A stretch of 64,000 nt of DNA. Origin: an uncultured bacterium. GTDB lineage: Bacteria; Omnitrophota; Omnitrophia; Omnitrophales; Aquincolibacteriaceae. The stretch covers positions 15,985 through 79,984 of the forward strand of contig CAZLTL010000012.1 in assembly GCA_964562525.1 (NCBI GenBank), given 5' to 3'. Positions within the stretch are counted from its first letter, which is position 1, and every line of letters starts with the position of its first letter. Shown in pieces: positions 4,734 through 60,280 of this stretch. Position numbers and translations under genes: made by a program. The notes beneath the pieces were generated by a model that worked only from the letters and a program-made list of their open reading frames with translations, was not told where the DNA came from and made no database searches.

Positions 4734-4795
4734 ATCTAAAGCCCTTTAAAATATAAAATATCGAGAAATAAGACGATTAAGCCGAAAATAATGGC

Positions 4796-6082: not shown

Positions 6083-6854
6083 GTGTTTCCCTAAGCCATT
6101 TCAGAATCGGCTCAACAGTTTCTTTTTTGTTTTTTAGCAAAAGATACTCCGCGTGGGGGCCGCCCTCAATCATCACCAAACTCTTCTTACTCTTCGCGGC
6201 TTTAAACAACTCCGATGAGTGATTGGGTTTAATCAGCCAATCTTTGGTCCCATGGATAAAAAGGATGGGGGCTTTTACTTTTTCAACGCAAACAATCGGT
6301 TTATCTTTTTTCAGCCAAAAAGGCCCGGGACGAACGCCTTTGCCATAACGCCCTTCGCCGACCAAGTTGTAAAAAATATCCTGATCGGGATCCAACTCCC
6401 AAAAATGATATTCGATTTTCTCAAACTCCGTGGGAGGGCTGATCGCGACCAAGCTTTGAATTTTTTCCGAGCGTGACGCCGTAATAATACTGGTCGCGGC
6501 ACCCAGAGAAAATCCGATCAATCCGATTGCGGCATAGTTTCGTTCCATTAAATCAATCACGGCTTCCAAATCGAGATATTCTTTCGTGGTCCAATAAAAC
6601 AACCCCGGGCTTTGCCCATGACCGCGGAAATCAAGTATGGCCACGTCATATTCATCCAAAAGCGAGTCCGCCAAAACCTTGATCAGCACGGAGGACTTGC
6701 TGTTAAAAAAACCATGCGCAATGATAATGACTTTTCTGTGGCCATTTTGATAATGATCCAAATAAACTTTTTGCCCGTCCGCGCTTAAAACACTCAGATT
6801 TTGAACTTTGCATTTCTTAGTCATGCCATTGTGCCTCGGGCGCTTTCTTCTCAA
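6075..6854 (-). CDS. alpha/beta-fold hydrolase
   Basis: 259 aa. Has the GXSXG nucleophile elbow (IGFSLGA) and length and layout typical of alpha/beta hydrolases. Confidence 0.7.
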   Translation of the reverse strand: MRRKRPRHNGMTKKCKVQNLSVLSADGQKVYLDHYQNGHRKVIIIAHGFFNSKSSVLIKVLADSLLDEYDVAILDFRGHGQSPGLFYWTTKEYLDLEAVIDLMERNYAAIGLIGFSLGAATSIITASRSEKIQSLVAISPPTEFEKIEYHFWELDPDQDIFYNLVGEGRYGKGVRPGPFWLKKDKPIVCVEKVKAPILFIHGTKDWLIKPNHSSELFKAAKSKKSLVMIEGGPHAEYLLLKNKKETVEPILKWLRETLT

Positions 6855-20900: not shown

Positions 20901-22582
20901 GTACCAAGCGTCGTCAAAGTGGAAGTTACGATTTCTTCGCGAATACAGTCAATCGGCGGATTCGTTACCTGCGCGAAAAGCTGTTTGAAATAATTGTATA
21001 AAAGCTGAGGTTTATTCGATAACACGGCAAGCGGTGTATCCGTTCCCATGGAACCGATCGGCTCTACGCCGTCGCGGCCCATCGGAGTCAAAATCAAACG
21101 CAAATCTTCAAAGGTATAACCAAATGCTTTTTGGCGCTGTAAAACCGTTTCATGATCGGGTTCATGCACATGCGGTGCATCCGGCAACTTATCGAGCAAA
21201 ATTAAATTGTCATTCAGCCAGGTGCGGTAAGGTTTCTCGCCGACGATTTTCTTTTTGATTTCTTCGTCGGAAATGATGCGGCCTTCTTTTGTGTCGATCA
21301 AAAACATGCGGCCCGGCTGAAGGCGTCCTTTTTCTAAAACATTTTCCGGAGCTACCGGCAATACTCCGACTTCGGAAGCCATAATAACGCGGTCGTCTTT
21401 GGTTACATAATAACGGTTAGGGCGCAGTCCGTTGCGGTCGAGGATGGCGCCGATTTGCGTACCATCGGTAAACGCAATGGCCGCGGGGCCGTCCCACGGT
21501 TCCATCAAACAGCTGTGATATTGATAAAACGCTTTTTTCTCATCAGACATGGATTCATGCATCGACCATGGCTCGGGAATCATCATCATCACCGAATGCG
21601 GCAAAGAACGGCCCGAAAGAACCAAGAACTCAAGACAGTTGTCAAACATTGCGGAGTCAGAACCGTCTTGATTGATAACCGGCATCAACTTTTTAATATC
21701 ATCGCCCCATACGCCGGACGCACAAAGTGCCTGGCGCGCATTCATCCAGTTCACGTTACCGCGCAAAGTGTTGATTTCGCCGTTATGCGCGACAAAGCGA
21801 TAAGGATGGGCGCGATCCCAACTCGGAAACGTGTTCGTGCTGAAACGGGAATGCACAAGACCGATGGCGCTTTCCATCGCGGGATCATTCAGCTCAGGGA
21901 AGAAATCTTCAACCTGTTCGGGTAACAACATACCTTTGTAAATAATGGTGCGGCTAGAAAGGCTTGATACATAAAAAAACTCGCGGCCTTTAACATCTTT
22001 GGAATAACGGATTTCGTTTTCGACACGGCAGCGGATGACATACAGTTTGCGCTCAAACGCCATTTGATCTTTGAGGTTGGCGGATTTGCCGATAAAGATC
22101 TGGCTGACATACGGCTCGCTGGCTTTAGCTGTTTCACCCATCGAACGGTTCGTAGTCTGCACTTTGCGCCAGCCGAGAACCTGCTGACCTTCTTCTTTGA
22201 CAATTTTTTCGAAAATTTTTACGAAGTTCTTATATTCTTTTTCTTTCACCGGCATAAAAACCATGCCGACACCGTATTCACCTTCGGCCGGAAGATTGAT
22301 ACCGAAGCCCGGACAGTTTTCCTGAAAATATTTGTGCGGAAGCTGAAACAAAATACCGGCGCCGTCACCCGTGTTGTATTCACAGCCGCAAGCGCCGCGA
22401 TGGCGGAGGTTCTTTAAAATCGTGAGCGCGTCCTGAACAATTTGATGGGATTTCTGACCTTTAATATGCGCGACAAACCCGACACCGCAGGCATCATGCT
22501 CTTGGCGCGGATCATAAAGGCCTTGAGCTTCAGGGCGTTTCCAAAGAGGCTGCTTTTCCATTTTTCGCTGAGTGTCCGTCAT
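17951..22582 (-). CDS. gltB: glutamate synthase large subunit
   Basis: Has the N-terminal amidotransferase Cys (..[14 protein letters not shown]..), then FMN-binding and GXGXG C-terminal domains, about 1540 aa. The ORF track extends to 22699. The ATG at 22580-22582 ([14 protein letters not shown]..) gives the expected N-terminus; an upstream start cannot be excluded. Confidence 0.85.
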
Positions 22583-22778
22583 GTTTTTATGATTAATCGG
22601 TAAAATTCCGGCTATTGTGCCCAAAAACCCGCACAATGTAAACTCTTGGTTTTGGGGTGAAGATATTACAACCTGAATCGGTTTTTGAGAAGAGCCCATT
22701 TTAATAATTGAGCTGATTAAGAACTAATCCGAACAAAGCCGTTGATAAGCGGTTGCAAACCAACGCTATTAAAATAGA

Positions 22779-24551
22779 ATGCTGAGCGAAGCACCGCCCC
22801 TTCCGGAGCGGTTTTTCCTCGCGGAGCACCCAAAAATAGGCAGAAACATTCAAACTGTGACTCAAACTCAAACCCAGCCAGGTCTTTTTAAAAAAAATCT
22901 GGTTCTTATCTTTTTATTTGCCGTCCTGACTATGGGGATAACCGCCCGTTTTTGGGATTTGTCACAGCACTTCACCAATACCGACGACCTAGGTATCATC
23001 GAAGTGACCTTTGAAGCGCAAAAGGCGGGGAACCTCTTCCATCTGCCGACGATTTTAACGAACGCGCCTTTTCAATACGTTCTCACCTATTTTCTTCTCA
23101 CTGAAAAAATGTCTTATGAGGAACTCCTCTTTTGGTGCCGCCTCCCTTCGTGTCTGTTCGGCGGCGGCGCATTGGCTATTCTTCTGCTCTTTTATTTTGA
23201 TTACGCGCGCAAACAAATCACGAAAGCTTTGCTTGGCCTCACGCTGCTCGCCTGTTCATGGGAAGCAATTATCTTTTCAAAGCAAACGCATAGTTATTCC
23301 ATCGGCGTCTTGGCATCCGCATTGCTCTGCTTGCTTTTGATCGATCAAATGAAGCGCCGTCCGCAAATTTCGCCGGCATGGCTGGGCGTCTTTTTGGCGT
23401 TGATCGCGTCCATGCAGTATCAAGCGCTTGTTTTTTTACCCGCCCTTCTAATCAGTCTCTACTTTTATCGCCGGCCTTTTGCCGGATCGCAATTGGCTCT
23501 AATCAAACCGTTGGGAATCACCACAGCTGTGTGCGGGCTGGTTTTTTATCCCGTATGGAAATTTTTTCTCCGCAACAAACCGGACAACTTTCACGCAACA
23601 TTAGATTGGACATTGGGCGCTAACCGCGAATTTGCTTTCCCCAATCTGGAAGCAATCAATCTCTTGCAGGCTATTTTAAAATCCGTTTGGTTTTACATTA
23701 AAAATTTCCACTTTATTTTCGAATCAAAAATCAGTTTCATTCCCGATAATTTCTTTTTATTTCAGCCCATCACTTTTTGTCTTTTTGTGCTTTTCTGCTT
23801 AGGGGTAATTCATTTCTTTATCACACCCAACCGCAAAACGCGCCACATCGGTATTTTTTTTGGAGGCTGTCTTTTAACCTGGTGGATACTTGTCCCTCTT
23901 AAACAATTTCCTTACACCCCTTCGCGCCACACGCTGATTCTTCTGCCCTTCTTCTGCATCACAATCGCGGAAGGACTAGATGGGCTGCGCCGATTACTCA
24001 AAAAGGCTTCCTTGAAATATCCTCGTTTTTTATTTGATCGAAGCGCTATCGCGATAAGCTTCACGATCCTGATTTTATTTATTATTTTTTATCCGCATTT
24101 TCTTGCCGAAAGAAAAAATCCCATTCAGGAAAAAGAAGTTTGCGGGCTGATCGATAAATACAAAGTGGACTCCATGCTCTTTGACCGCCGCAGCCTGCAC
24201 TTGGAATACATGGCTTGTGTTCGCGCGCTGGCCGACAAACAAGACAAGCCGGGCGAGGTCAGAACTTTTGCGACTGTCAGCCGTTACCCCGGCGTCAGCG
24301 CGCAAGACCGCTGTGAAATTTTCAAGCAAATGAATAATGTCGGAGCCATTGACCAGCTTCGCGCTACAGGCACCTTACCCATGGTAATGAAACGGGAATG
24401 CGCTGACTATAAAACGGTTTATCAAAAAGAGGTCGATACCGGCGTCATGGAGGGATTTGATCGTAATCTCAAAGCGGATATTTACGGCAACAGGCTGTAC
24501 TTTTACATTCTTTCATTGGATCCTCCGCCCGCCGAGCCCTCTGTTTCCTGA
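22779..24551 (+). CDS. polytopic membrane protein, putative GT-C-fold (ArnT/PMT-like) glycosyltransferase with C-terminal soluble domain
   Basis: 590 aa, roughly 11 predicted TM segments with an acidic first loop (..HFTNTDDLGIIEV..). Its layout resembles the 51877 and 59042 proteins. The start is uncertain. Confidence 0.4.
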   Translation: MLSEAPPLPERFFLAEHPKIGRNIQTVTQTQTQPGLFKKNLVLIFLFAVLTMGITARFWDLSQHFTNTDDLGIIEVTFEAQKAGNLFHLPTILTNAPFQYVLTYFLLTEKMSYEELLFWCRLPSCLFGGGALAILLLFYFDYARKQITKALLGLTLLACSWEAIIFSKQTHSYSIGVLASALLCLLLIDQMKRRPQISPAWLGVFLALIASMQYQALVFLPALLISLYFYRRPFAGSQLALIKPLGITTAVCGLVFYPVWKFFLRNKPDNFHATLDWTLGANREFAFPNLEAINLLQAILKSVWFYIKNFHFIFESKISFIPDNFFLFQPITFCLFVLFCLGVIHFFITPNRKTRHIGIFFGGCLLTWWILVPLKQFPYTPSRHTLILLPFFCITIAEGLDGLRRLLKKASLKYPRFLFDRSAIAISFTILILFIIFYPHFLAERKNPIQEKEVCGLIDKYKVDSMLFDRRSLHLEYMACVRALADKQDKPGEVRTFATVSRYPGVSAQDRCEIFKQMNNVGAIDQLRATGTLPMVMKRECADYKTVYQKEVDTGVMEGFDRNLKADIYGNRLYFYILSLDPPPAEPSVS

Positions 24552-24580: not shown

Positions 24581-25801
24581 ATGCCTCAATCTTCTTCCAA
24601 TCGATTTGAAATCGCACAAAATGTTTTTCGCTGGGCGCTGATTTCGATTTTAATCGGATTACTGGCCGGAAGCGCTTCCGCGCTTTTTTTGGTTTCACTC
24701 GACAAAGCGACGAGTCTCCGCGAAAATCATGGCTGGATTTTATTTCTTCTCCCGCTGGGCGGGCTTCTGATCGGCTGGGTTTATCACAAAATCGGCAAAG
24801 CGGTTGAAGGCGGAAACAACTTGCTGCTGGAAGAAATTCACGACCCCAAAAGCGTCATTCCTTTGCGCATGAGCCTGCTTGTTCTCGCGGGCACATTAGC
24901 AACGCATTTGTTCGGCGGCTCCGCGGGCCGCGAAGGAACCGCGGTACAAATGGGCGGCTCACTCGCGGATCAACTCACAACACCTCTCAAGCTTTCACCC
25001 GATGATCGCCGCATTTTACTCATGGCCGGAATCAGCGCGGGCTTTGCCTCAGTTTTTGGAACGCCTCTGGCAGGCGCGATTTTCGGACTGGAAGTTTTAG
25101 CGATCGGACGATTGCGCTATGAAGCGATTTTCCCTTGTTTTATTTCCGCACTCATCGCGCATTTAGTCACACTCGCTTGGGGCGTTCAGCACATCGTTTA
25201 TCAAGTGCCGTTTGTGCCTGCCATGACTTGGTTTCATCTGCTTCAAATTGCAATCGCGGGAGCTTTGTTCGGACTTGCCGGATCAGGTTTCAGCTGGGTC
25301 ATTCATAAAATGGCCGGCTTATTTAAAAAATATATCGCCTATGCTCCGCTCCGACCTTTTGTAGGCGGCATCATTCTTGTTTTGCTCGCGGGCGCGTTTC
25401 AAACGCATCGCTATTTGGGTCTTGGAATTCCGACCATGCAAGCCGCATTTGAAGGCTATTTACCGCCGCAAGATTTTCTCGCCAAAACTTTATTTACCGG
25501 CATCACGCTCGGCGCGGGATTTAAAGGCGGCGAGGTGACGCCTCTTTTTTTCATCGGCGCAACCATGGGAAATGCTCTCAGTTACGTGATGACATTACCC
25601 ACGGCGGTCTTGGCAGGAGTGGGATTCGTCGCGGTTTTTGCGGGCGCGGCCAACACGCCGCTTTGCTGTATTTTACTCGCCATGGAAATGTTCGGATCTG
25701 AAATCGGAGTTTATGCCGGAATCGGTTGCGTGATGAGCTATCTATTTTCAGGCCATACCGGCATTTACCACTCGCAACGAATTGCTCACTCTAAGCAGTA
25801 A
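24581..25801 (+). CDS. CLC-family channel of the fluoride-specific CLC-F (EriC-F) subclade
   Basis: 406 aa. Carries the three CLC-F selectivity-region variants GNNLL, GREGTAVQ and GGEVTPLF in place of the canonical GSGIP/GK(R)EGP/GxFxP. Confidence 0.7.
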   Translation: MPQSSSNRFEIAQNVFRWALISILIGLLAGSASALFLVSLDKATSLRENHGWILFLLPLGGLLIGWVYHKIGKAVEGGNNLLLEEIHDPKSVIPLRMSLLVLAGTLATHLFGGSAGREGTAVQMGGSLADQLTTPLKLSPDDRRILLMAGISAGFASVFGTPLAGAIFGLEVLAIGRLRYEAIFPCFISALIAHLVTLAWGVQHIVYQVPFVPAMTWFHLLQIAIAGALFGLAGSGFSWVIHKMAGLFKKYIAYAPLRPFVGGIILVLLAGAFQTHRYLGLGIPTMQAAFEGYLPPQDFLAKTLFTGITLGAGFKGGEVTPLFFIGATMGNALSYVMTLPTAVLAGVGFVAVFAGAANTPLCCILLAMEMFGSEIGVYAGIGCVMSYLFSGHTGIYHSQRIAHSKQ

Positions 25802-26156: not shown

Positions 26157-29100
26157 TTAGAAAGCCATCACAACATTGGATAAAATCGGCTGTTTCTTTT
26201 TATCTTTATCTTCACGGTCATCATAAGCGATCGAAATATTTTGACCGCGGATTTGCTCCCACATGCTCCAAAATGCGGTGTGATACTCCGCATTACGGCC
26301 TGCGAGCAATTCTTGAACAATCTTTAGCTCATCCGGATCTTCAACCAATTCCAATACCTGCTTCACATTGCCAAGTTTGTCTTTAAATTCAATGCGATCT
26401 TCAAAGATCCATTTTGACCCGACAAATCCCACCGTGTCAGAATAAATATTTTCTATCACAATGGTTTTAGTCGAATAGCCTTCTTGATGAACAAAGATCA
26501 GGATTTTAGAAGAAGTTTTGGATAAAACCCCAAACCCTTCGGGATTAAGTCCCAAAGCGCTCACAGCCAAATCCTTTTCAGCATCTAACAATACTTCTCC
26601 TGCGCGAAAATCTGGATCAAAAGTATGCGCAATCTCATTACCCTGCGCATCTTTCCAGATATTGGCGGAATACAACCAGCTTGAAGTAATTTTACTCCCC
26701 AAAAACTGTCCATTCTCATCAAAAAACTCTGTCAGTCCGCCGAGTCGACAACCTATCGCCTGACAAATGTTGACGTAAAAAGGAGTCAGTGTTTTATAAG
26801 CAAAGGAAGGGGTCTTTCCAAAAATCATTGCCGCGATTTGATTTTCACCAATATCACTAGCTTGCATCAAAATTACCTGTCCCTCCTGCAGACGTTTTGC
26901 CAAATAGCTAATTCCGTTGTAGCCAAAAAACACACTCGCCTGTCCGGGGTGAGAAAAATTCTCAACCACTCTCGAGATATTGATATTTTTCATTGCAACC
27001 AACAAAGCAACCATGTCGCCCAAGCGGCTTATTTTAGGGCGCAGAGGCATCATATATTCAGGAAGTTTAATGCCCCTCCCATTCACAGGATCTCCCATTA
27101 ACATATCATCCCCAAGAATGAGATCAGCTTCAAAAATTGGTTCGGGTCCAGGCCATACACTTGCCTTACCTGGAAGAATTTGTTCCATGATTGCGAGCAT
27201 GAATCCAAAATCAACCGACACCGAGCCTGCCCCTGCACCAGAATAATTCACAAATCCAGTATTTCTTAAAATGTTTCCGTCAGCGGTCATTGAAAAGCTC
27301 AAACTCACTAAGTTGGAAGGCCACATAAGTGCCGAGACATCAATTATGTAATTACCCTGTTTGTCTTTACTAAGGCTGACAAGGTACTGTTCACCAAAAG
27401 CGACTTTTAATGCGGCTATCATTTCACGCACAGCCGAGGGAAGCATCTTTTGTTCGCCATGCGCAACAGCCTTTAAAAGCTGTTCGAGAGTTGAAAAATC
27501 CATTTTTTCTTCCGATCCATCCGCAAACGTAATTAAGGCTTCATAAACACTAAGATCAGTAACGGATTCTTCCGCAGGCTCGCGTTCGACTGGAACCGTA
27601 TACCACGATATTTTTCGTGACACACGGATGGTCGAAAGAATATTTCCCTGAACATCGGTTCGTGTAATCGTCATTACATTAGGGTTAATTTCATACACAT
27701 CCGCCCAGATTTTTTTTGGCTCAGGATAAGAAAACTGGCTAATTACCGCCAAATTACCCTGTTCATCATATTCTCTGACTTCAGCAATGCGATAGGTTCC
27801 AAATGAGTCTTGCTCAAGAATCACGTCTTTTTTGTCACCGCCAAATCTTTCTCCGTACTCCGTTCCTATACCGAATAAAATCTCAACTCGTTTACCGTCT
27901 TCGGAGTATCGATATGCCATTTGGGCGACTACCACTTCAATGTATTGCGCTGTGCATACGTCGCCAGTGCAATTATTCACAACTTGTGTCACAAAAACCG
28001 ACTGAAGCCGATTGTTGCCCGGTCCTTCGAGTCGAATAACACCTGTGTCCGTATTAAGTTCTGTCAAATAATTTGCCAAGAACCGTTTATCCCCCACAGA
28101 AAAATAAGCCGCCTTTAAAAAATAGGTCGACTCCGGTTCTTTCGCACAATCGGTCACACCCTCTGCAGAAACAGAACACGGAACACCCATCATAAGTGGC
28201 TGACTTTTGCCAAGCGTATAATTAATTTGACTGGGCAATTGATTGCTCCCAAGCGGATCCATCAAGCTTACCGCTCTTTGAGGAACCCTAACACTGGGAT
28301 CGATGTGAACCGTCGCGCTTAAAGACTGTAAATCAACTTCAATTTTGATTAAGCCATCGCGCATCAAATAAAGTACTGTTTTAAAATAGAACCCGAAATC
28401 ATTGACCAAACTCTGAACTAAAGTGCGCTCAGCCAACTTAACCTGACTAGGCTGAATGGCTTCATGCCACTTCACTTCCGTTTTGCTTTCATAACCCGAA
28501 TAAGTCGTCACCGTGGTTTTCTTTCCGAGATAAATACCGTTTTCATCGTAATAGTCGGTTTCAGACGCATCTGTTCCGCTGCATGAAGGCGGAAAACTCA
28601 TCGTACAAAGTGCATTTGATGTATTTTTTTGATGTGTATATTTTGCTTTACCCAAATGAAAATCAGCTTCAACATCGTCATAAGCCGGCTTGAGCGGCAA
28701 GGATGATGTATAAGTTCCATCATCATTTTTCTGAATGGCATAAAAATAACCATCACGTTCAATGACAAAATTTTTATCAAGCAGACTTCCGCTCACAAAG
28801 CGAACGGTCTCGCCATCCGCAGTTTGCCAAAGCTGCCCGGCACTCGCATCACGGGAGTCATGTTTTCTCGTTCCCAAAACTGTTCCGTCTTCGGCATAGT
28901 AAGTATCGGTTGTATCAAAGCACGGCGCGATAACGCATTCGACTTCTTCGCGAACGGTTGTTTTATAAATCGGTGATTGTGTCTGAGTGTTATCCGTTAA
29001 AACAACATGGACTTGCGCTGTTTCTTCAGGATCCGCCGGACTAATCAATGAGTTTTCAACCGGTGGATTAACAATCACTTCCACCGGAACATCATAACCA

Positions 29101-29390
29101 CATTCGCGAGTATAGGCATGGCATTGAACGGCAATTTCTTCCGCTTCAACCACCGGGCTAAGAGGGCTTCCGCTTTCAAATTGATCCGCTGCCGAAACTT
29201 GGCCCAGCTGAGCACCGAAGTTACGATCGTAGAACTGGTTATCAGGATCCACCACAGCAACGAATTGGCCGCTTCCATCCTGTTGAATCGGCTGAGCATC
29301 CGCCGCAAGAAGCGGTGTCACATTTGTAAAAAAATAAATGATGACGGTAACAACGCTATAAATTTTTACATTCAGTTTTAAAGTATTCAT
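26157..29390 (-). CDS. large secreted YD/RHS-like repeat protein (1077 aa), function unknown
   Basis: Has the signal peptide MNTLKLNVKIYSVVTVIIYFFTNVTPLLAADA and a GGGAGG Shine-Dalgarno 8 nt upstream. Recurring YD-type repeats are present (YYAEDGTVLG, YYDENGIYLG, FFDENGQFLG, YDEQGNLAV). No recognisable C-terminal toxin domain and no downstream immunity-like ORF. Confidence 0.55.
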   Translation of the reverse strand: MNTLKLNVKIYSVVTVIIYFFTNVTPLLAADAQPIQQDGSGQFVAVVDPDNQFYDRNFGAQLGQVSAADQFESGSPLSPVVEAEEIAVQCHAYTRECGYDVPVEVIVNPPVENSLISPADPEETAQVHVVLTDNTQTQSPIYKTTVREEVECVIAPCFDTTDTYYAEDGTVLGTRKHDSRDASAGQLWQTADGETVRFVSGSLLDKNFVIERDGYFYAIQKNDDGTYTSSLPLKPAYDDVEADFHLGKAKYTHQKNTSNALCTMSFPPSCSGTDASETDYYDENGIYLGKKTTVTTYSGYESKTEVKWHEAIQPSQVKLAERTLVQSLVNDFGFYFKTVLYLMRDGLIKIEVDLQSLSATVHIDPSVRVPQRAVSLMDPLGSNQLPSQINYTLGKSQPLMMGVPCSVSAEGVTDCAKEPESTYFLKAAYFSVGDKRFLANYLTELNTDTGVIRLEGPGNNRLQSVFVTQVVNNCTGDVCTAQYIEVVVAQMAYRYSEDGKRVEILFGIGTEYGERFGGDKKDVILEQDSFGTYRIAEVREYDEQGNLAVISQFSYPEPKKIWADVYEINPNVMTITRTDVQGNILSTIRVSRKISWYTVPVEREPAEESVTDLSVYEALITFADGSEEKMDFSTLEQLLKAVAHGEQKMLPSAVREMIAALKVAFGEQYLVSLSKDKQGNYIIDVSALMWPSNLVSLSFSMTADGNILRNTGFVNYSGAGAGSVSVDFGFMLAIMEQILPGKASVWPGPEPIFEADLILGDDMLMGDPVNGRGIKLPEYMMPLRPKISRLGDMVALLVAMKNINISRVVENFSHPGQASVFFGYNGISYLAKRLQEGQVILMQASDIGENQIAAMIFGKTPSFAYKTLTPFYVNICQAIGCRLGGLTEFFDENGQFLGSKITSSWLYSANIWKDAQGNEIAHTFDPDFRAGEVLLDAEKDLAVSALGLNPEGFGVLSKTSSKILIFVHQEGYSTKTIVIENIYSDTVGFVGSKWIFEDRIEFKDKLGNVKQVLELVEDPDELKIVQELLAGRNAEYHTAFWSMWEQIRGQNISIAYDDREDKDKKKQPILSNVVMAF

Positions 29391-29460
29391 TTGCGCATCC
29401 TCCCTTGTTATTTCCTAATAGAAAGATGGCGGAAGTCTTTATCAAAGTCTAAACAAACTC

Positions 29461-29511
29461 GATAAGAGGTCGAAAAGCGGCGATAAGCGGTAAAATCTTT
29501 GAATAAGCGGT
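29461..29511 (-). promoter_or_regulatory. three direct repeats GATAAGAGGT / GATAAGCGGT / AATAAGCGGT at 21/20-bp phasing; candidate LytTR-family response-regulator binding site
   Basis: The repeats start at 29461, 29482 and 29502, between the LytTR regulator gene and the YD-repeat gene, 70-120 bp upstream of the latter's start. LytTR regulators are known to bind about 9-bp direct repeats spaced 12-13 bp apart. Confidence 0.5.
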
Positions 29512-29559
29512 AAACCGAAAAATCCGCTATTTTGGACTTTATTCAGCCAGGTTTTTTCT

Positions 29560-30333
29560 TTACCAGCCGCCAAGCTGAGAACGGACATGGCCGGCATAGC
29601 GCCGGGAAAGAGGAACTTTGGGGGCATCGGAGGTTTTAAGAATAATTTGATAATTCCCGCTAAAGAGAGGGCTGATTTTCTGAACGCGCGATAAGTTCAC
29701 AAGATAAGCTTTGTGGCATTGCGCAAATCCGCGGGATTCAAGCCCCTCAGCCAATTCTTTTAAAGTCAGACTCACGATAAAGTCTTGTCCTTTGATGTGC
29801 GCAAAAACCTCGGCTGATTCCGCGTGAAAAAAATCAATTTCAGCGGGGTCGAGAACCATTTTCTCTTTGGAATTCTTTTGCCTTGCGGCAATCTTCTGAA
29901 TCAATCCTTTCTTTAAAAAAGATCCTTCCAGCTTCCCTAGCCCGTTTTGTTTTTGGCCGGCAGAAAAATGAGTCTTGATTTTTTCGAGAGCTTTTTTGAG
30001 ACGGTCTTGACGGCAGGGCTTCAAAATATAGTCCAGAGCATTGGCTTCAAAAGCATCCACCGCATACTGATCAAAAGCCGTTGAAAAAACAACCCTGGGC
30101 GGTGAAGGATCTTGCGCGAGCTCAAGCGCGACTTCTATGCCGGTTAAAAAAGGCATATCAATATCCAGAAAAACAACATCCGGCTTTAAGCGGCGCGCGA
30201 GCTCAAGCGCTTGCTTACCATCGCTTGCTTGTCCGATGACTTCAAAGTCAGCCTCACTCGCGAGCATTCGCATCAGATCTTCGCGTGCCAACGATTCATC
30301 ATCAGCAAGGACCAATTTAATTTTTTGCATCAT
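29560..30333 (-). CDS. two-component response regulator, LytTR family (receiver + LytTR DNA-binding domain)
   Basis: 257 aa. Has a receiver domain (KLVLADDE..DIDMP) and a C-terminal LytTR domain. Confidence 0.85.
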   Translation of the reverse strand: MMQKIKLVLADDESLAREDLMRMLASEADFEVIGQASDGKQALELARRLKPDVVFLDIDMPFLTGIEVALELAQDPSPPRVVFSTAFDQYAVDAFEANALDYILKPCRQDRLKKALEKIKTHFSAGQKQNGLGKLEGSFLKKGLIQKIAARQKNSKEKMVLDPAEIDFFHAESAEVFAHIKGQDFIVSLTLKELAEGLESRGFAQCHKAYLVNLSRVQKISPLFSGNYQIILKTSDAPKVPLSRRYAGHVRSQLGGW

Positions 30334-31900
30334 CCCTCTCCATCGGCAATTTTAAAACCACGCGAGCTCCCGCAGCAGAAGACTCAAAAATGATTTCGGC
30401 TTTTTTTCCGAAAGTTTGACGCAATCTTTGCCGGATATTACCCAGTCCAATTCCCAGCCCCTCGCCCCGAACCGCTTCGCCTTTTTGCAAAGCAGCAAGT
30501 TTCTCAGGCTGTATCCCGGGACCGTTGTCCCGCACTGAAATTTCAACGTTATCTTCCGCTTCAATAATATCGATAGCAACCGTGCCTTGCTCTGTTTTTT
30601 TTCGAGCACCATACCGGATCGCGTTTTCAACCAAAGGCTGAACCAAAAGCGCGGGTATTTTTAAATCTCGGGAGCGGGATGACCATTGAAGATTTTTTTC
30701 TATTTTCAGGCTGTCACCAAACCGGGCTTTTTCCAAATCAAGGTAGGCATCCACAAAATCCATTTCTTCACTCAATGTAATTTGATCGCGCCCATGCTGC
30801 AATGAAAGCCTGAAAAAATCAGCCAGCTTTTCAATTAATCCTCGTGTTTGCGCCGCCGCCTCTCTTGAACTGACCGCCGCGATTGTATTTAAAGCATTAA
30901 AAAGAAAATGCGGCTTGATTTGGGTTTGAAGCAATAACAAGCGGCTTTGCAGCAACTCCTTTTCAGCGGCTTTTTGTTTTTCATCACGCAAAAGAACGAG
31001 TGCAACCGCGGTAAAAAGAATAATTCCGCAAGCCTCAGCAAAGCCGGTCCAGCCGGCGGCTAATAAAGCATATTCCCGCGGCCAATCCGGACCGATGAAA
31101 ACAACCGCAGCGTGCGTGGCTCCGGCAAAAATTCCGGCGAAGACAGACCAAAGCAGTCTCTTTCCGAAGCGTTTTGCTCCATAAAAGAAAACCGCTCCCA
31201 ATAAGCCTGAACCGATTAACGCCGCCGCAATCATCCAGCTCTGCGGCTGCAGAAGGAAGCGCATTACGGAAAAAATGACTCCGCAAACAAGTCCGGGCAA
31301 TAATCCGCCGGCAAACCCGGCACACGCCGCAAAAACAATTTGTAAATCAAAGTAACTGGAAGCCGCCGAGCCATAGCGAATGAGGTCATAAGTTCCGAAT
31401 AAAAAACCGGCTATGGTAAGCCAAAATACTGTCGGCCATTTTGCAAGTACCGCCACGGCACTTTCTTTTTTTCGGAAAAATGAAAGCTTTACGGAAATGA
31501 GCGCCAGAATCGCGATTAAGACAGAGCTGCGCAAAAGATCAAAAATAATCTCAAGCCATGCCTGACGCGGCCAAAACTGATCCGAATCAAAAGCAAGCTG
31601 ACTTTCAATTAAGTTTAAATCAAATCGGCATGACTTCAAAAGTTCAAATGCCAGAGCTTTATTTCCCTGCTCTTCAGCCGCAGAGGCCTGCTCTATTCGC
31701 GGAAAAATGAGCAGGGTATCATTGGTGGACTCAATATTCAATTTTTGCAATGTCTGTGAAATTTCCGTGCGCAAGCCTTCTAAATCAGCCTCCTGAGGAA
31801 AAGAAACCAGGACGGGAACAAATACAAGAACCGCGAAAAAAAAGAAGATTCGAAGAGTTTGAGGACGTCCGTTAAATTGCGGGTGAAGGTGTTTCAGCAT
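30317..31900 (-). CDS. LytS/YehU-family sensor histidine kinase
   Basis: 527 aa. Has an N-terminal signal/TM segment and an extracytoplasmic segment of about 100 aa, then a multi-TM 5TMR-LYT-like block, the His_kinase (PF06580-type) motif ..IKPHFLFNALNTIAAV.., and a HATPase_c domain (DNGPGI..GLGIGLGNIRQRL). Confidence 0.8.
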   Translation of the reverse strand: MLKHLHPQFNGRPQTLRIFFFFAVLVFVPVLVSFPQEADLEGLRTEISQTLQKLNIESTNDTLLIFPRIEQASAAEEQGNKALAFELLKSCRFDLNLIESQLAFDSDQFWPRQAWLEIIFDLLRSSVLIAILALISVKLSFFRKKESAVAVLAKWPTVFWLTIAGFLFGTYDLIRYGSAASSYFDLQIVFAACAGFAGGLLPGLVCGVIFSVMRFLLQPQSWMIAAALIGSGLLGAVFFYGAKRFGKRLLWSVFAGIFAGATHAAVVFIGPDWPREYALLAAGWTGFAEACGIILFTAVALVLLRDEKQKAAEKELLQSRLLLLQTQIKPHFLFNALNTIAAVSSREAAAQTRGLIEKLADFFRLSLQHGRDQITLSEEMDFVDAYLDLEKARFGDSLKIEKNLQWSSRSRDLKIPALLVQPLVENAIRYGARKKTEQGTVAIDIIEAEDNVEISVRDNGPGIQPEKLAALQKGEAVRGEGLGIGLGNIRQRLRQTFGKKAEIIFESSAAGARVVLKLPMERDDAKN

Positions 31901-32756
31901 TTTGTTGACGCAACATCATCGCACGCAAGCGGCTGAAACGCAAATCACGGGCCTTTTTTGAAACCGATAAATACCAGCTGCGGTAAATTGCGCGAGAAAC
32001 AGCCGGCGACTGAGAATCAATAGCCCCTTTACGCAGAATTTCCAAAACCTGCTCCATAACCTGTTCGCGCCGCTTCGATCTTTCCGGGGAATCAACCGTT
32101 TCTGCCTGCTGATCCAAGGAAGAATCCACGGACATCTCAGAACGATTTTGTTCATCACTTTCGTAATCCAAAAGATTCTGCAGCAAGTTTTCATTCTTAG
32201 GTAAAGCCGAATCATTGAGGCTCTCAGTCGGAGAAGCGGTCCTCTTTGCCGCTTGCTCAAAAAAAGAATTGATGACCGCGGTTACGGCTTTGATAACATT
32301 TTCATTAGCGCTATGCTTGGATGCAAAGCTCGTCAATCTTTCAAACTGCTTTTCCACAGCCTCATAATTCGCCGGAGAAGCGACATTAGAGTTCAAAACT
32401 TTATCGATGCTTTGCAAAGCAGATTCGGTATAGTTTAAGAAAGTTTGAGTTTCCTTTTCATTCAAACCAATACCGTCCAAAATCTCTTTCACGCGCGGGT
32501 CTTTTTTTTCATCTTCAATAATCACGACATCTCCGGGCAATGTGATAACCGCCGCATTTTCTAAACTGCGCTGTGGTAAAACATTGTTTTCAGATTGGGA
32601 ATCTGAAATATTCTCCGCGCTAATTACCGGCACAAAATTTCCGCTCCCTGGCCCGGCTTGCGTTGCAACGTCTTCTGCCCAAAGAGGCAGGGGCATCCCC
32701 GCAACAAGAAGAAGTAAGCCCAAAACGCATTGAATAAGTTTTTTATCTTTTTTCAT
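31872..32756 (-). CDS. secreted (signal-peptide) protein of unknown function, co-oriented with the LytS/LytTR genes
   Basis: Start is set at the internal ATG 32754-32756 (MKKDKKLIQCVLGLLLLVAGMPLPLWAED, a typical Sec signal). The rest is acidic/Ser-rich with no recognisable domain. Confidence 0.5.
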   Translation of the reverse strand: MKKDKKLIQCVLGLLLLVAGMPLPLWAEDVATQAGPGSGNFVPVISAENISDSQSENNVLPQRSLENAAVITLPGDVVIIEDEKKDPRVKEILDGIGLNEKETQTFLNYTESALQSIDKVLNSNVASPANYEAVEKQFERLTSFASKHSANENVIKAVTAVINSFFEQAAKRTASPTESLNDSALPKNENLLQNLLDYESDEQNRSEMSVDSSLDQQAETVDSPERSKRREQVMEQVLEILRKGAIDSQSPAVSRAIYRSWYLSVSKKARDLRFSRLRAMMLRQQNAETPSPAI

Positions 32757-32883
32757 AAGTATTCCGCTAGTTATAAAGATACTTGGTTCAAAGCACAGAA
32801 CCAAAATATTATTTATAGCATAAACATCCAAAACATAGCTTGATTGGCTTTTTCAGCTAAGTTTAAGGCAAAAAGAGCGCGGA

Positions 32884-34215
32884 CTAAAGCAAAGTTCCCT
32901 TGAGGACAAGCGCGGCGATCGAGAAGTAAATCACGATTCCAAAAACATCGACGAGCGTCGCAACAAAAGGCGCGGAAGCGCTGGCCGGATCAAAACCGAA
33001 CTTTTTCAGAATAAAAGGTAAGAGCGAACCAATCGCGGTTCCCCAGACGACAATTCCGATAAGACTCGCTGCAACGACAAAACCGATTAAAAAAGTATGT
33101 TCACCGTAAGAATGAAACAAATAACCGGCGGTCAAAATACGTAGCAACCCTAAAAGCGCGAGAATCAAACCCAGCCCCAGCCCGATTAATATTTCACGCT
33201 GAACAATGCGCCACCAGTCCCGCAGCTGAAATTCTCCCAGCGCCATCGCGCGGATCACCAGCGTCGCGGCCTGCGAGCCGGAGTTTCCGCCGCTTGAGAT
33301 AATCAGCGGGACAAACAGCGCCAGCACCACAGCCTGCGCAATCTCATGTTCAAAAAAAGCCATCGCGGTCGCGGTGAGCATGCTGCCAAAAAAAAGAACC
33401 ACAAGCCAGACACCGCGTTTCTTAAGCATTTCCCAAAAACCAATTTGCATGTAAGGCTTATCCAAAGCCTCCATACCGCCCAACTTTTGAATATCTTCGG
33501 TGGCTTCATCCTGAACCGCGTGCAAAATGTCATCCGCGGTGATAATACCTTTGAGACGGTGAAAGTCGTCCACAACCGGAAGCGCAAAAAATTTCCTCTG
33601 AGAAAAAATTTTCGCTACGGCTTCTTGATCTTGGTTTTCAGTAACCGTGGTAACTTCAACCTTCATGATGTCGCGCACTTTTTTATCCGGGGTAGCTTTG
33701 AATAAATCACGGAAAGAAACCACGCCCAAAAGTTTTTGAGCCTCGTCCAAGACATAAACGTAATAAATGTTTTCTAAATGCTTTTGAACCTGAAGACGCA
33801 AATAACGTATCGCTTCATCCGCGGTTAAATCGGGCGGCACGCGCGCGAAATGCGGGTTCATCAGTCCGCCCGCGACATCCTGCTTATAAGTCAGCAATAC
33901 ATTCACTTCACGCCGATTCTGATCATCCAATAAATTAAGCAACACGCTTCGTTCTTCATCGGGAGAATGTTGAATTAAATCAGCGGCATCGTCCGGCGCC
34001 AAAAGCCTCAGCCAAAGCCGTTTCTCACCCTCGGGTAAGCGGCGGATAATTTGCGCACGGTCATCCACGGAAATCTTAAGAAAAAAATCCTGCGCTTCTT
34101 CACGGCCGATTAGGGAAAAAGCTTCCGCCCGCTCATCGGCGGAAAGCACCGACCAGGTATCTTCAATTTCACTTTCACTGAGTTTTTCTGCGGGATCAAA
34201 ATTCATAAGCGGCAT
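32884..34215 (-). CDS. mgtE: magnesium transporter MgtE
   Basis: 443 aa. Has the MgtE N-domain, tandem CBS domains and a C-terminal 5-TM pore domain (..PLIISSGGNSGSQAATLVIRA..). Confidence 0.85.
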   Translation of the reverse strand: MPLMNFDPAEKLSESEIEDTWSVLSADERAEAFSLIGREEAQDFFLKISVDDRAQIIRRLPEGEKRLWLRLLAPDDAADLIQHSPDEERSVLLNLLDDQNRREVNVLLTYKQDVAGGLMNPHFARVPPDLTADEAIRYLRLQVQKHLENIYYVYVLDEAQKLLGVVSFRDLFKATPDKKVRDIMKVEVTTVTENQDQEAVAKIFSQRKFFALPVVDDFHRLKGIITADDILHAVQDEATEDIQKLGGMEALDKPYMQIGFWEMLKKRGVWLVVLFFGSMLTATAMAFFEHEIAQAVVLALFVPLIISSGGNSGSQAATLVIRAMALGEFQLRDWWRIVQREILIGLGLGLILALLGLLRILTAGYLFHSYGEHTFLIGFVVAASLIGIVVWGTAIGSLLPFILKKFGFDPASASAPFVATLVDVFGIVIYFSIAALVLKGTLL

Positions 34216-35137: not shown

Positions 35138-36730
35138 ATGAATCAGCCCACTCCCAAAAAGCGGGATCTCGCCATGCTGGTCGATCACCAGCAGACTTCT
35201 TTTTTTAAACATCGCCCTTCGCTTTTAATATTAGGTATCAGTCTGCTGGTAACGGTATTAACTTTTATGAAAATGCAGGAGCTTGAAAAAGCTCGTCTGC
35301 AAAATGAATTTGAACGCATATCCAACAACATCGTCGTCACTCTCAAAGACTCGATTGAAAGCAACCTTGAGGTCCTGAACGAACTGAGCGGGCTTTATGT
35401 GGCAAGCGATTCGGTTGAACGTTCCGAATTCAAACAATTTGCCGATCATATTTTCGGACGACGCCCCGATATTTATATGCTCGGCTGGTCTCCGAGGGTT
35501 GCGCATGAAGATTTACCAAAACTGATTCAGTCCGCCAATAACGACGCTATTTCTGATTACACAATCAAACAATATGATCATCGCGGACTCATGGTTCCCG
35601 CTCAGGAGCGCGAAGAATATTTTCCGGTTCTTTACGTTGAGCCGCTCGAACGCAACAGACATGTTTTGGGACTAGATGAAGCTTCTTACGCCATCACGCA
35701 GCCCGCGATCAGAAAGGCTCTTGAAACAGGCCGGCCCGCGGCAACGATCGTCATGAATTTGCCGCAATTTGAAAATGAGCCGGCGGCTTCGCGCAACGGC
35801 TTTCAGGTGTTCGCCCCGATCTATGAAAAAAATGCCGAGCTTCTCTCATTTGAGGATCGAAAAAAAAATCTGCGCGGTTATGCCGTAGCGGCTTTTCATA
35901 TTCGTAAAATGTTGGAATCCGTTCTCAGAAATTTTAAAACTTCGGAGTTGGAGCTTCGAATTTACGCTCAAGCCGTAAGAAACAAAGAAAAACTCATCTA
36001 CACTTACAACCCGCAGTCGGAGGGCAAAGCCGAAGACAGCTGGCAAGTTGAGTCTGAAATCAAAGTCGCGGGACATTATTGGAAAGTCGTTTGCACGAGT
36101 ACAAAAATATTCAAAAAAAATCATTACCGCTGGGAAGCTCCCGCGGTTTTCGTCATCGGTGTTTTGCTAGGATTTTTACTGGCCATTTATATTTTCTCTT
36201 TTGAGCGCAATCGCATTCGGGAAATTATGGTGGCGTTATCGCTGACCGACGAACTCACCCAGCTTTACAACCGCCGCGGTCTTTGGCTGCTCGCGGATGA
36301 GCAAATCCGACTCTCTCTGCGGCACAAGCGGGGCTTTTGGCTGTTCGTGCTGGATATGGATGAGCTGAAAAAAGTCAATGACACCATGGGTCACCCCGAA
36401 GGCGACCGCGCCATCAAGAGGCTTTCCCAGCTATTACAGAACACATTCCGCAAATCGGACATTATTTCGCGTATTGGGGGCGATGAATTTGCTGTTGTGG
36501 CTCTTGAAGCCGCGCAAACCAGCTTGCCGGACCTTTTAGAACATTTTCAAACGCAGCTTAAAAAAAATAACGCCTCAAAAGAATACGACTATAAATTACG
36601 CGTCAGTGTTGGTTCAGCCTATTTTGACCCAACGAATCCTTGCTCAATCGACGAGCTCATCGCCCGCGCCGACAAAGAACTCTACGCGCAAAAGACACTG
36701 CACCGCGCACAAAAAACAACAGCAAATTAA
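35138..36730 (+). CDS. CHASE-domain sensor diguanylate cyclase (GGDEF)
   Basis: 530 aa. Has a TM segment, a periplasmic CHASE domain, a second TM segment, and a GGDEF domain with an intact RIGGDEF active site. Confidence 0.8.
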   Translation: MNQPTPKKRDLAMLVDHQQTSFFKHRPSLLILGISLLVTVLTFMKMQELEKARLQNEFERISNNIVVTLKDSIESNLEVLNELSGLYVASDSVERSEFKQFADHIFGRRPDIYMLGWSPRVAHEDLPKLIQSANNDAISDYTIKQYDHRGLMVPAQEREEYFPVLYVEPLERNRHVLGLDEASYAITQPAIRKALETGRPAATIVMNLPQFENEPAASRNGFQVFAPIYEKNAELLSFEDRKKNLRGYAVAAFHIRKMLESVLRNFKTSELELRIYAQAVRNKEKLIYTYNPQSEGKAEDSWQVESEIKVAGHYWKVVCTSTKIFKKNHYRWEAPAVFVIGVLLGFLLAIYIFSFERNRIREIMVALSLTDELTQLYNRRGLWLLADEQIRLSLRHKRGFWLFVLDMDELKKVNDTMGHPEGDRAIKRLSQLLQNTFRKSDIISRIGGDEFAVVALEAAQTSLPDLLEHFQTQLKKNNASKEYDYKLRVSVGSAYFDPTNPCSIDELIARADKELYAQKTLHRAQKTTAN

Positions 36731-60223: not shown

Positions 60224-60280
60224 AATAACCCTGTTTTACAAATTCGTTTCTTATTTAACCGCTTATTTAAAGGAGGCTTC

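Follow-up and report, generated by a model that had tools for sequence, protein, structure and literature searches.

Gene order at the locus

Within the window (the whole stretch of 64,000 nucleotides that was analyzed), five genes lie collinearly on the minus strand. A called mgtE gene (32884-34215) is followed by an open reading frame for a secreted accessory protein (31872-32831, from a TTG at 32831; ORF calling and hydropathy), a LytS-like histidine kinase (30317-31900; Pfam and hydropathy), a BtsR-like response regulator with REC and LytTR domains (29560-30333; Pfam and NCBIfam), and a 1077-aa secreted modular protein (26157-29390), which is the likely regulated target. This order from the accessory gene to the 1077-aa ORF, with mgtE upstream, was re-derived as originally predicted. 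The neighboring gene past the 1077-aa ORF is convergent and encodes a CLC channel. In the Omnitrophota loci compared, mgtE had no conserved place in the cassette.

The accessory protein had been described as a secreted protein of 319 aa. Its single hydrophobic segment (residues 5-28, by hydropathy) is N-terminal and signal-like, in agreement with secretion, but the probable start, an ATG at 32756, reduces its length to 294 aa. Pfam returned no known domain for this protein. The stop of its gene overlaps the start of the kinase gene by 29 nt, which suggests that the two are translationally coupled. An accessory gene occupies the same position in every related cassette; close relatives have homologous versions of the encoded protein, and between some distant ones the homology is weak.

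The kinase matched three Pfam domains: 5TM-5TMR_LYT (27.2 bits, with a cutoff of 24.6), His_kinase PF06580 (88 bits), and HATPase_c (58 bits). According to its hydropathy profile, an N-terminal transmembrane segment (aa ~13-38) is followed by ~75 aa outside the membrane and then by a 5TMR-LYT block of 5-6 transmembrane segments (aa 114-306). No GAF domain was matched in Pfam, and there is no room for one, since only ~50 residues separate 5TMR-LYT (to residue 268) from His_kinase (from residue 320). The regulator gene begins within the end of the kinase gene. Its product scored above the Pfam cutoffs for Response_reg (86 bits) and LytTR (79 bits), and its Asp57, found in the sequence FLDIDMP, is invariant in 15 relatives.

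Phased boxes upstream of the 1077-aa gene

Three 10-mers of the form [G/A]ATAAG[A/C]GGT had been reported in the gap between the regulator and the 1077-aa gene, and we located them exactly at 29461, 29482, and 29502. The window contains 5 matches to this pattern, compared with 0.46 expected. Read on the gene strand (minus), the repeats contain a distal box ACCGCTTA (29504-29511), a central box ACCGCTTA (29484-29491), and a proximal box ACCTCTTA (29463-29470), which form the array ACCGCTTA-N12-ACCGCTTA-N13-ACCTCTTA with spacings of 20 and 21 bp. The array starts 48 bp past the regulator stop codon; relative to the start codon (ATG) of the 1077-aa gene, it lies 73-121 bp upstream. The paired pattern ACCGCTTA-N13-ACCNCNTA was found once in the window, as opposed to 0.00 times expected from 100 shuffles. 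LytTR sites generally consist of 9- to 11-nt repeats separated by 11- to 13-nt spacers (PMC4847170). The repeats at this locus fit that architecture in length, spacing, and direct orientation, as had been proposed.

A candidate promoter, TTGATA (29445-29440) and TCTATT (29422-29417) separated by 17 nt, could be discerned by eye on the minus strand immediately downstream of the boxes (29417-29445). It sits in a block that is ~98% identical to the related locus L001. A consensus scan of the gap found no sigma-70 promoter and no terminator; the scan demands an A at the second position of the -10 element and so does not pick up TCTATT. A Shine-Dalgarno-like sequence, GGGAGGA (29398-29404, minus strand), precedes the ATG at 29390 by 7 nt. 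Transcription of the large gene by read-through from the regulator gene may also occur.

Conservation of the boxes in Omnitrophota

The boxes recurred in the same place in seven further Omnitrophota lineages, whose regulators were 46-89% identical to that of the window. The eight box-bearing lineages were the window, L001/L004, L084, L085/86, L090, L091, L092, and L173/174. Conservation of the repeats in orthologous loci, which the original prediction had named as a check, was therefore found at regulator identities down to 46%, with place, orientation, and 20- to 22-bp phasing retained. The central box was invariant (8/8 lineages), while the spacers drifted. In 7/8 lineages, the distal box took the form [A/G/T]CC[G/T]CTTA and preceded the central box by 20-22 bp; the proximal box followed the family form ACC[G/T/A]C[T/C][T/C][A/G], always at +21. 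In the eight-lineage alignment, the mean information content was 1.80 bits for box columns and 1.03 bits for spacer columns.

The window and L001 were 100% identical over a 60-nt stretch covering the boxes. The nucleotide identity between the same two loci was 86% for the regulator gene, 76% for the kinase gene, and 66% for the large gene; the intergenic DNA immediately upstream of the boxes was 75-80% identical. A search of both strands of 14 Omnitrophota loci revealed no phased box pairs elsewhere, and none of ~85 loci with unrelated LytTR regulators contained the strict box pattern.

The lineages compared were few, and every one was metagenome-derived. In 9 of the 11 Omnitrophota lineages examined, a large or giant gene comes after the regulator. 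The combination of sensor, boxes, and big gene was found again across Omnitrophota, where the giant genes reach 6,396 codons. The conserved unit consists of the secreted accessory protein, the GAF-less LytS-like kinase, the LytTR regulator, the boxes, and the large or giant secreted protein.

Similarity to BtsS/BtsR and other LytTR systems

The best NCBIfam model for the regulator was BtsR NF008677, at 179 bits, which is below the 246-bit equivalog cutoff (the score for LytR was 120). The regulator is 34% identical to Escherichia coli BtsR over its full length, and the kinase shares 36% identity with E. coli BtsS, confined to DHp/CA. The two systems share a REC plus LytTR regulator, a kinase composed of 5TMR-LYT, PF06580, and HATPase_c, and three direct copies of an 8-mer upstream of a single target gene. 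An E. coli oligonucleotide from upstream of btsT (yjiY) that binds YehT has the layout GCCGCTCA-N12-ACCGCTTA-N13-ACCACTCA (PMC4847170). Its central word is identical to the central box of the window, and its 20/21 phasing is the same. In 2012, Kraxenberger et al. reportedly defined the BtsR motif as ACC[G/A]CT[C/T]A, directly repeated across a 13-bp spacer. The window sequence ACCGCTTA-N13-ACCTCTTA fits this motif, with the proximal copy having a T where E. coli allows G or A.

The differences from BtsS/BtsR lie in the sensor and the target. E. coli BtsS carries a GAF_2 domain (residues 243-352) between the transmembrane block and DHp, a placement of GAF shared with LytS and YpdA, whereas the window kinase lacks GAF and has an added N-terminal transmembrane segment with an extracytoplasmic portion; beyond the 5TM block, its sensor region is unrelated to that of BtsS. 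The overlap of the kinase gene with a secreted accessory gene also distinguishes the window system. The BtsR target, btsT, is an unlinked gene, controlled in response to external pyruvate, for a CstA-family pyruvate/H+ symporter, as opposed to the adjacent gene for a large secreted modular protein, in which Pfam found no transporter domain. Since the regulator scores too low for the BtsR model and the sensor portion of the kinase is unlike that of BtsS, the identity of the box word with that of E. coli could be a case of convergence.

The AgrA/ComE-type systems employ peptide-sensing kinases of the HPK10 type (AgrC, ComD), whereas the window kinase is of the LytS type. No peptide-pheromone gene was found in the window cassette. 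AgrA, ComE, PlnC/D, VirR, and YpdB share the site architecture, that is, phased direct repeats next to an activated promoter (PMC4847170). The YpdB word is GGCATTTCAT (PMC4847170), and the window word is that of BtsR. We found no paper that describes the cassette, in line with the claim that it is not a described module; its regulatory logic, however, is that of BtsS/BtsR. The locus thus presents a known regulatory logic with an undescribed target class.

The 1077-aa protein and its module family

The N-terminal leader of the 1077-aa protein (29154-29390, minus strand) contains a hydrophobic segment at aa 10-31 and an F-E-x-x-S-P-L-S-P motif at aa 71-79. Its first ~60 aa are almost invariant in comparison with the related protein P0002, and an FFxDxSPLS-type motif is common to all box-linked large proteins. 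Searches with the 1077-aa protein yielded no Pfam families (E<=0.01), no NCBIfam families, and no PDB sequence match.

An exhaustive HMM search and AlphaFold2 delineated a family module of ~320-370 aa at aa 310-680 (27351-28463, minus strand). The profile built from this region matched 56 proteins in a set of 1.84 billion representatives (E<=0.001), and for 20 of these the match reached E<=1e-30. These proteins carry 1-6 copies of the module and reach 6396 aa, and the named ones are Omnitrophota hypothetical proteins only. The 1077-aa protein is the smallest member of this uncharacterized family. The AlphaFold2 model of the module, based on 32 module sequences (pLDDT 82.7, pTM 0.80), predicts a helix pair, a long antiparallel beta-hairpin sheet, and a second helix pair; the full-length model of the 1077-aa protein (pLDDT 34) was unusable. 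Two observations count against the proposed wiring. The large proteins of L090 and L173 had no module at E<1e-3, so that the proteins downstream of the boxes are heterogeneous, and one module-family member (P0003, locus L002) adjoins neither a two-component system nor boxes.

Giant proteins of Omnitrophota, of at least 30,000 aa and classed as Archaeovorin-type and Dockerin-type, have been described in a preprint (West-Roberts et al., bioRxiv 10.1101/2023.11.21.568195). They have SecA-like, transmembrane, HEAT, or GT domains, are associated with loci for type II secretion and sugar import, and contain repeating beta-rich units joined by paired helices (bioRxiv 10.1101/2023.11.21.568195). Judged by description, these units resemble the predicted module. 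Like the window family, the giants belong to Omnitrophota and are extracellular, repetitive, and largely unannotated. In contrast, the cassette proteins are 1,077-6,396 aa long, begin with a signal peptide and the FFxDxSPLS leader, and are encoded after a two-component system; LytTR or two-component linkage is not mentioned in the preprint (bioRxiv 10.1101/2023.11.21.568195). Dockerin/EF-hand domains were present in some relatives of the window protein (Dockerin_1 in P0136) and in some accessory proteins (Dockerin_1 in those of L091 and L092), whereas Pfam matched neither Dockerin nor EF-hand in the window 1077-aa protein. [quoted passage not shown]

A probable sensory cassette and its alternatives

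The locus is quite probably a self-contained Omnitrophota sensory cassette, in which the sensor and the boxes would activate the gene for a large secreted protein. The wiring of the two-component system to the large gene via the boxes is strongly supported, at the level of sequence, by the conservation of the boxes in eight lineages and by the match to the BtsR word and phasing. That the regulator binds the boxes, and that it activates and does not repress, is inferred, as are the signal and what the protein does. The LytS-like membrane kinase, with its extra extracytoplasmic segment, no GAF, and a gene overlapping the accessory gene, would sense an external cue and phosphorylate the BtsR-like regulator on Asp57. 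The phosphorylated regulator would then bind the three 8-bp boxes cooperatively on one helix face and activate a weak promoter immediately downstream, so that the boxes most likely switch on the large gene. The product would be a signal-peptide-bearing extracellular or surface protein built on the beta-hairpin-sheet module, probably with a structural or adhesive role at the cell surface. In other Omnitrophota, the same position is occupied by giant proteins in which this module is repeated many times, and through the cassette the control of giant genes in Omnitrophota becomes testable.

The collinearity of all four genes, the closeness of the boxes to the regulator stop codon, and the lack of a terminator in the gap would also suit an autoregulatory, operator, or repression site on the kinase-regulator operon (e.g., a 3'-terminal roadblock or an element resembling a terminator) or a large gene that ends one constitutive operon. 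Autoregulatory LytTR sites, however, are normally located ahead of their operon, and neither the accessory nor the kinase gene was found to have a box upstream. The orientation of the boxes and their distance of 60-95 nt to the next start codon are kept even where the gap expands to 300-370 bp (L085 and L091), and downstream of the boxes comes a conserved block that contains hexamers resembling -35/-10 elements and a ribosome-binding site. The boxes are absent precisely from the lineages that have no large gene immediately after the regulator, L087/88 and L175/176. These observations make such an arrangement unlikely. Binding of the repeats by another factor, or a leader RNA or recombination site next to the LytTR gene by coincidence, is very improbable. 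A weak half-phase copy, CCGCTTTTCG (29471-29480), creates a 10- to 11-bp sub-period that could suit other binders. This copy is only partly conserved, resembles a T-rich spacer, and is not kept as a word in the lineage alignment. The gap had no Rfam match and a folding z-score of 0.01; the repeats have the length, spacing, and direct orientation of LytTR sites, the box word is that of an experimentally used BtsR site, and eight lineages have inherited the boxes together with the regulator gene.

The cassette reading leaves the class of the large protein to be considered. It had been labeled a YD/RHS-repeat protein, and one could regard it as a divergent Rhs/YD polymorphic toxin or an ABC-toxin-like shell deployed under the two-component system. 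The protein has three YYDENG-x-LG motifs, i.e., YD-like turns; Rhs (8qja) and teneurins, whose shells are beta-hairpin-rich like the module, were among the top PDB matches of the module in Foldseek; and the giant-gene preprint reports that beta-helical parts of other Omnitrophota giants show Rhs-like features. The family searches did not support the label, however. Neither RHS_repeat (PF05593) nor YD-repeat (TIGR01643) was matched in the 1077-aa protein, and relaxing the threshold to E<=10 gave DUF4998 and MORN_2 only. The Foldseek TM scores were 0.07-0.15 for Rhs/teneurin (e.g., 0.14), a weak and generic beta-hairpin-sheet likeness, and 0.07-0.25 overall, with OspA, LolA, porin-like, and MORN matches intermixed. 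Rhs proteins form a closed beta-shell around a toxin, with an autoproteolytic core motif at the C-terminus and a cognate immunity gene. As had been noted earlier, neither a toxin C-terminus nor an immunity gene was seen, and the 1077-aa sequence showed no DPxGL-type cleavage motif. Unlike an Rhs cocoon, the module has flanking helix pairs and occurs in tandem copies, and we consider a toxin of this kind highly improbable.

Three phased direct repeats precede the gene for the large protein

Four genes are collinear on the minus strand of the window, as originally predicted, and the order is confirmed by ORF calls and Pfam matches. They encode a secreted accessory protein (319-aa ORF, 31872-32831), a 527-aa kinase (30317-31900; Pfam 5TM-5TMR_LYT, His_kinase PF06580, and HATPase_c), a 257-aa regulator (29560-30333; Pfam Response_reg and LytTR), and a 1077-aa large protein (26157-29390) with zero Pfam matches. 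The domain search proposed for the 319-aa accessory ORF returned no Pfam match; hydropathy revealed a single hydrophobic segment at its N terminus. Translation most likely starts at the ATG at 32756; the product would then be 294 aa long, which is also how the gene is called in L003, a near-identical contig. At its N terminus the kinase carries a TM segment, followed by ~75 residues outside the membrane and a block of 5-6 TM segments. One hydrophobic segment, at the N terminus of the large protein, ends in LLAAD. The closest relatives are annotated as Candidatus Omnitrophica/Omnitrophota.

Read along the gene strand, the gap that separates the regulator gene from the large-protein gene contains TTT-ACCGCTTA-TTCAAAGATTTT-ACCGCTTA-TCGCCGCTTTTCG-ACCTCTTA-TCGAG. 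Its three direct 8-bp repeats (hereafter boxes), read from the minus strand, lie exactly where they had been placed: the distal box at 29511-29504, the central box 20 bp away at 29491-29484, and the proximal box a further 21 bp away at 29470-29463. The 10-mer repeat pattern occurs 5 times in the window (0.46 expected), and the paired pattern ACCGCTTA-N13-ACCNCNTA occurs once (0.00 expected).

The remaining two 10-mer copies, at 22744-22753 and 60258-60267, stand unpaired and were judged to be chance occurrences. The first is not conserved in L001, the locus of a related Omnitrophica MAG; it looks like chance because it is unpaired and the alignment of the window with L001 ends at the start of gltB, near this copy. 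It is an exact copy (GATAAGCGGT on the plus strand), ~45 bp upstream of the minus-strand gene gltB (glutamate synthase large subunit, 17951-22699) and 26 bp ahead of a divergent plus-strand ORF of 590 aa (22779-24551). This ORF, which has no Pfam match, is flanked by gltB and a gene for a CLC chloride channel (24581-25801); its place in L001 is taken by DUF4890, a 121-aa gene, and an ECF sigma factor. A half-phase copy at 29471-29480 proved to be a T-rich spacer that is just loosely conserved across lineages. The gap was also considered as an RNA element, a reading that we rejected since it had no match in Rfam and no excess RNA structure (folding z = 0.01). A consensus scan of the gap found neither a promoter nor a terminator. 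By eye, a candidate promoter (TTGATA-17 nt-TCTATT, 29445-29417) and a candidate ribosome-binding site (GGGAGGA, 29404-29398) could be placed 3' of the boxes.

The boxes are conserved among Omnitrophota

L001 and its near-twin L004 have a gene order identical to that of the window. Nucleotide identity between L001 and the window is 86% in the regulator gene, 76% in the kinase gene, 66% in the large gene, just 75-80% in the intergenic DNA directly after the regulator stop, and 100% across the 60 nt containing the boxes. More distant loci were reached through homologues of the regulator, whose identity to that of the window is 78% in L084, 53% in L085/86, 49% in L090 and L091, 46% in L092, and 47% in L173/174. 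Conservation in orthologous loci had been set beforehand as the test of the repeats; at each of these loci the boxes occupied the same place, after the regulator stop and before the next gene, and kept their orientation as well as a phasing of 20-22/21 bp.

An anchored alignment covering eight lineages shows the central box, ACCGCTTA, unchanged throughout (8/8) and gives ACC[G/T/A]C[T/C][T/C][A/G] as the proximal box. The mean information content is 1.80 bits for the box columns versus 1.03 bits for the intervening spacer. Phased pairs with up to 2 mismatches occurred just at this position when both strands of 14 Omnitrophota loci were scanned, and the strict pattern was absent from ~85 loci surrounding unrelated LytTR regulators.

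Two lineages, L087/88 and L175/176, have no large gene directly after the regulator, and no boxes were found in either. The regulator of L087/88 neighbors a convergent FecR gene and an IS66 transposase. In L087, the IS66-family transposase and a small accessory ORF (4557-5882) lie near the regulator orthologue, the sole one with neither boxes nor a large gene downstream, a setting consistent with local rearrangement. In L175/176, a tRNA and then ROK and M48 genes come between the regulator and a 7212-aa gene, which has no boxes before it. The tRNA-like sequence (L175 8880-8955), directly 3' of the regulator gene, has the anticodon loop CTGAAAA, consistent with tRNA-Phe, and may mark a rearrangement point in a lineage that lost the boxes. 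A scan of the genome collection returned one close locus, L004. A metagenome scan with the regulator alignment, whose peptide patterns were very generic, gave no new orthologous loci among the matches listed, and all LytTR regulators among them were ≤38% identical.

The boxes resemble the site of E. coli BtsR

In 2012, Kraxenberger et al. reportedly described the motif of E. coli YehT (BtsR) as ACC[G/A]CT[C/T]A with a 13-bp spacer. LytTR sites generally consist of 9-11 nt repeats with spacers of 11-13 nt, and an oligonucleotide named "yjiY YehT binding site" reads GCCGCTCA-N12-ACCGCTTA-N13-ACCACTCA (PMC4847170). Both match the direct repeats and spacing in the window, bearing out their proposed LytTR-type arrangement. 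We located the oligonucleotide sequence ~130 bp upstream of btsT (yjiY). The btsT and window sites share an identical central 8-mer, and both contain three boxes with 20/21 phasing. The boxes of L173 (GCCGCTTA/ACCGCTTA/ACCGCTCA) are closer to the E. coli site than those of the window.

The best NCBIfam model for the regulator is BtsR, at 179 bits, which is below the equivalog cutoff of 246 (LytR, 120 bits), and its full-length identity to E. coli BtsR is 34%. The kinase resembles BtsS (YehU) in DHp/CA alone (36%) and lacks the GAF domain that BtsS has. Thus, sensor architecture and target both differ between the two systems. Judged by the shared site, the low regulator score and identity, and the GAF-less kinase, the window system would work like BtsS/BtsR at the DNA end, yet it is not an orthologue. 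This suggests that a LytTR recognition word can be retained unchanged from phylum to phylum even as signal, kinase architecture, and target change.

Phylogenetic footprinting, together with identity to the experimentally used BtsR site, strongly supports, at the level of sequence, the wiring of the regulator through the boxes to the large gene. Binding by the regulator, the sign of its effect, the signal sensed, and the role of the large protein are inferences.

A recurrent cassette places large and giant genes behind the boxes

A signal-peptide protein of 291-539 aa precedes the kinase in every lineage. These accessory proteins are homologues in close relatives, show weak homology between some of the distant lineages, and contain Dockerin_1 in two cases. 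The accessory gene and the start of the kinase gene share 29 nt in the window, an overlap suggesting that the accessory protein may be a functional partner of the kinase. The mgtE gene (32884-34215, minus strand; Pfam MgtE_N/CBS/MgtE) had been left as a possible operon member. It adjoins the cassette just in close relatives of the window, is separated from it by three opposite-strand genes in L085, and is absent at L090, L091, L092, and L173. Thus, mgtE is not part of the unit.

The gene after the boxes encodes 1077 aa in the window, 1088 and 1090 aa in L001 and L004, 2650 aa in L090, 2702 aa in L091, 6396 aa in L092, and 2428 aa in L173. In L084 and L085 the contig ends inside the gene, leaving at least 1410 and at least 516 aa. 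At the locus of the relative P0032, known from gene order alone, the large gene encodes 2836 aa.

At some loci the giant gene is separated from the regulator gene by one or two small ORFs of 52-93 aa: L090 7984-8142, L092 7985-8146, L091 ~6486-6660, and genes of 93 and 87 aa at the P0032 locus. They belong to the more distant cassettes, lie 3' of the boxes where DNA sequence exists, and overlap the giant-gene start in L090 and L092; none lies between the two genes in the window. A leader peptide and a small partner protein are both possibilities.

The large proteins share a leader and a beta-rich module

The 1077-aa protein had been described as a YD/RHS-repeat protein, and a domain search might have assigned it to a well-known family. 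No sequence relatives were found in Pfam, NCBIfam, or PDB, RHS_repeat was absent even at E≤10, and only three YYDENG-x-LG motifs were present. The YD/RHS label is therefore unsupported.

A word-indexed homologue search gave 3 relatives only; an exhaustive profile/HMM search of 1.84 billion representatives was needed to find 56, essentially all of which align to residues ~310-680 of the window protein. The profile built from this region defines a ~320-aa module. By local iteration, proteins of 465-6396 aa, among them P0137 (the L092 giant), contain between 1 and 6 tandem copies of it. Named members of the family are Omnitrophota hypothetical proteins, and a few relatives contain Dockerin/EF-hand domains. 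The AlphaFold2 model of the module (32 sequences) was confident (pLDDT 82.7, pTM 0.80) and predicts two helices, a long antiparallel beta-hairpin sheet, and two helices; the full-length model (2 sequences) was unusable at pLDDT 34. Foldseek matches of the module model in PDB and BFVD (a porin-like Bacteroides protein, Rhs, teneurin, OspA, LolA-like, and MORN) were weak and mixed (TM≤0.25), so the predicted module is a generic beta-hairpin sheet of no recognizable family. One short unit is recurrent: a helix with ...LxxxLGxGYxV... and then K/Q-x-DG-T/S-Y-x-V/I-x-V, at aa ~652-687 of the window protein. In relatives it is found several times by itself (profile positions ~320-352), and it acts as a separable mini-domain at the module's C-terminal end.

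The proteins behind the boxes are heterogeneous across loci, and no module was found at E<1e-3 in those of L090 and L173. Common to all box-linked large proteins is an N-terminal leader consisting of a signal peptide whose hydrophobic core is TQVxP-like and, 50-110 residues in, an FFxDxSPLS-like motif. Sequence comparison places it at 29154-29390 (minus strand) in the window, L084 8960-9250, L085 9077-9300, L090 8139-8480, L091 6660-6900, L092 8136-8420, L173 8898-9260, and L002 10001-10260. The first ~60-95 residues are near-identical in the window, L001, and L084, and the remainder is 54% identical or unrelated. The box-less giant of L175 lacks the leader. The family member P0003 (L002) has the leader and three modules, with no adjacent two-component system and no boxes upstream. 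The leader could serve specifically for sorting, processing, or anchoring.

Possible control of giant genes

The Omnitrophota, notable for their giant genes, are ultra-small bacteria that have not been cultured and probably depend on hosts or live as predators. Two preprints on the giant genes mention no LytTR, regulator histidine kinases, or two-component systems beside them. The recurrent cassette, which sets large or giant secreted-protein genes behind BtsR-type boxes, ties a sensor-regulator pair and a precise cis-element to such genes in at least eight lineages; it is broader, and more interesting, than a single locus. We regard it as possible, if somewhat short of an even chance, that a phylum-wide dedicated switch of secreted co-sensor, GAF-less LytS-like kinase, BtsR-like regulator, and BtsR-type boxes activates large or giant extracellular proteins, sharing the special leader and the new beta-sheet module, in response to an outside signal, possibly a metabolite from host or prey. 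Expression of giant genes, and perhaps attachment to host or prey, would then be conditionally regulated through a cis-element simple enough for tests in E. coli. Since binding of E. coli BtsR to the word used in this element is already established, giant-gene regulation is testable without culturing. Box scans of genomes offer a route to the regulon, and the ~320-aa module and the leader serve as search profiles for annotating a blank protein family. Dockerin-type Omnitrophota giants consist of repeating beta-rich units joined by paired helices (bioRxiv 10.1101/2023.11.21.568195), and these units may be related to the module.

Neighboring signaling genes

A gene for a CHASE and GGDEF diguanylate cyclase is kept upstream of mgtE in the window (35138-36730, plus strand) and in L084 (1462-3069). 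GGDEF genes flank the cassette in L091, L092, and L175 as well.
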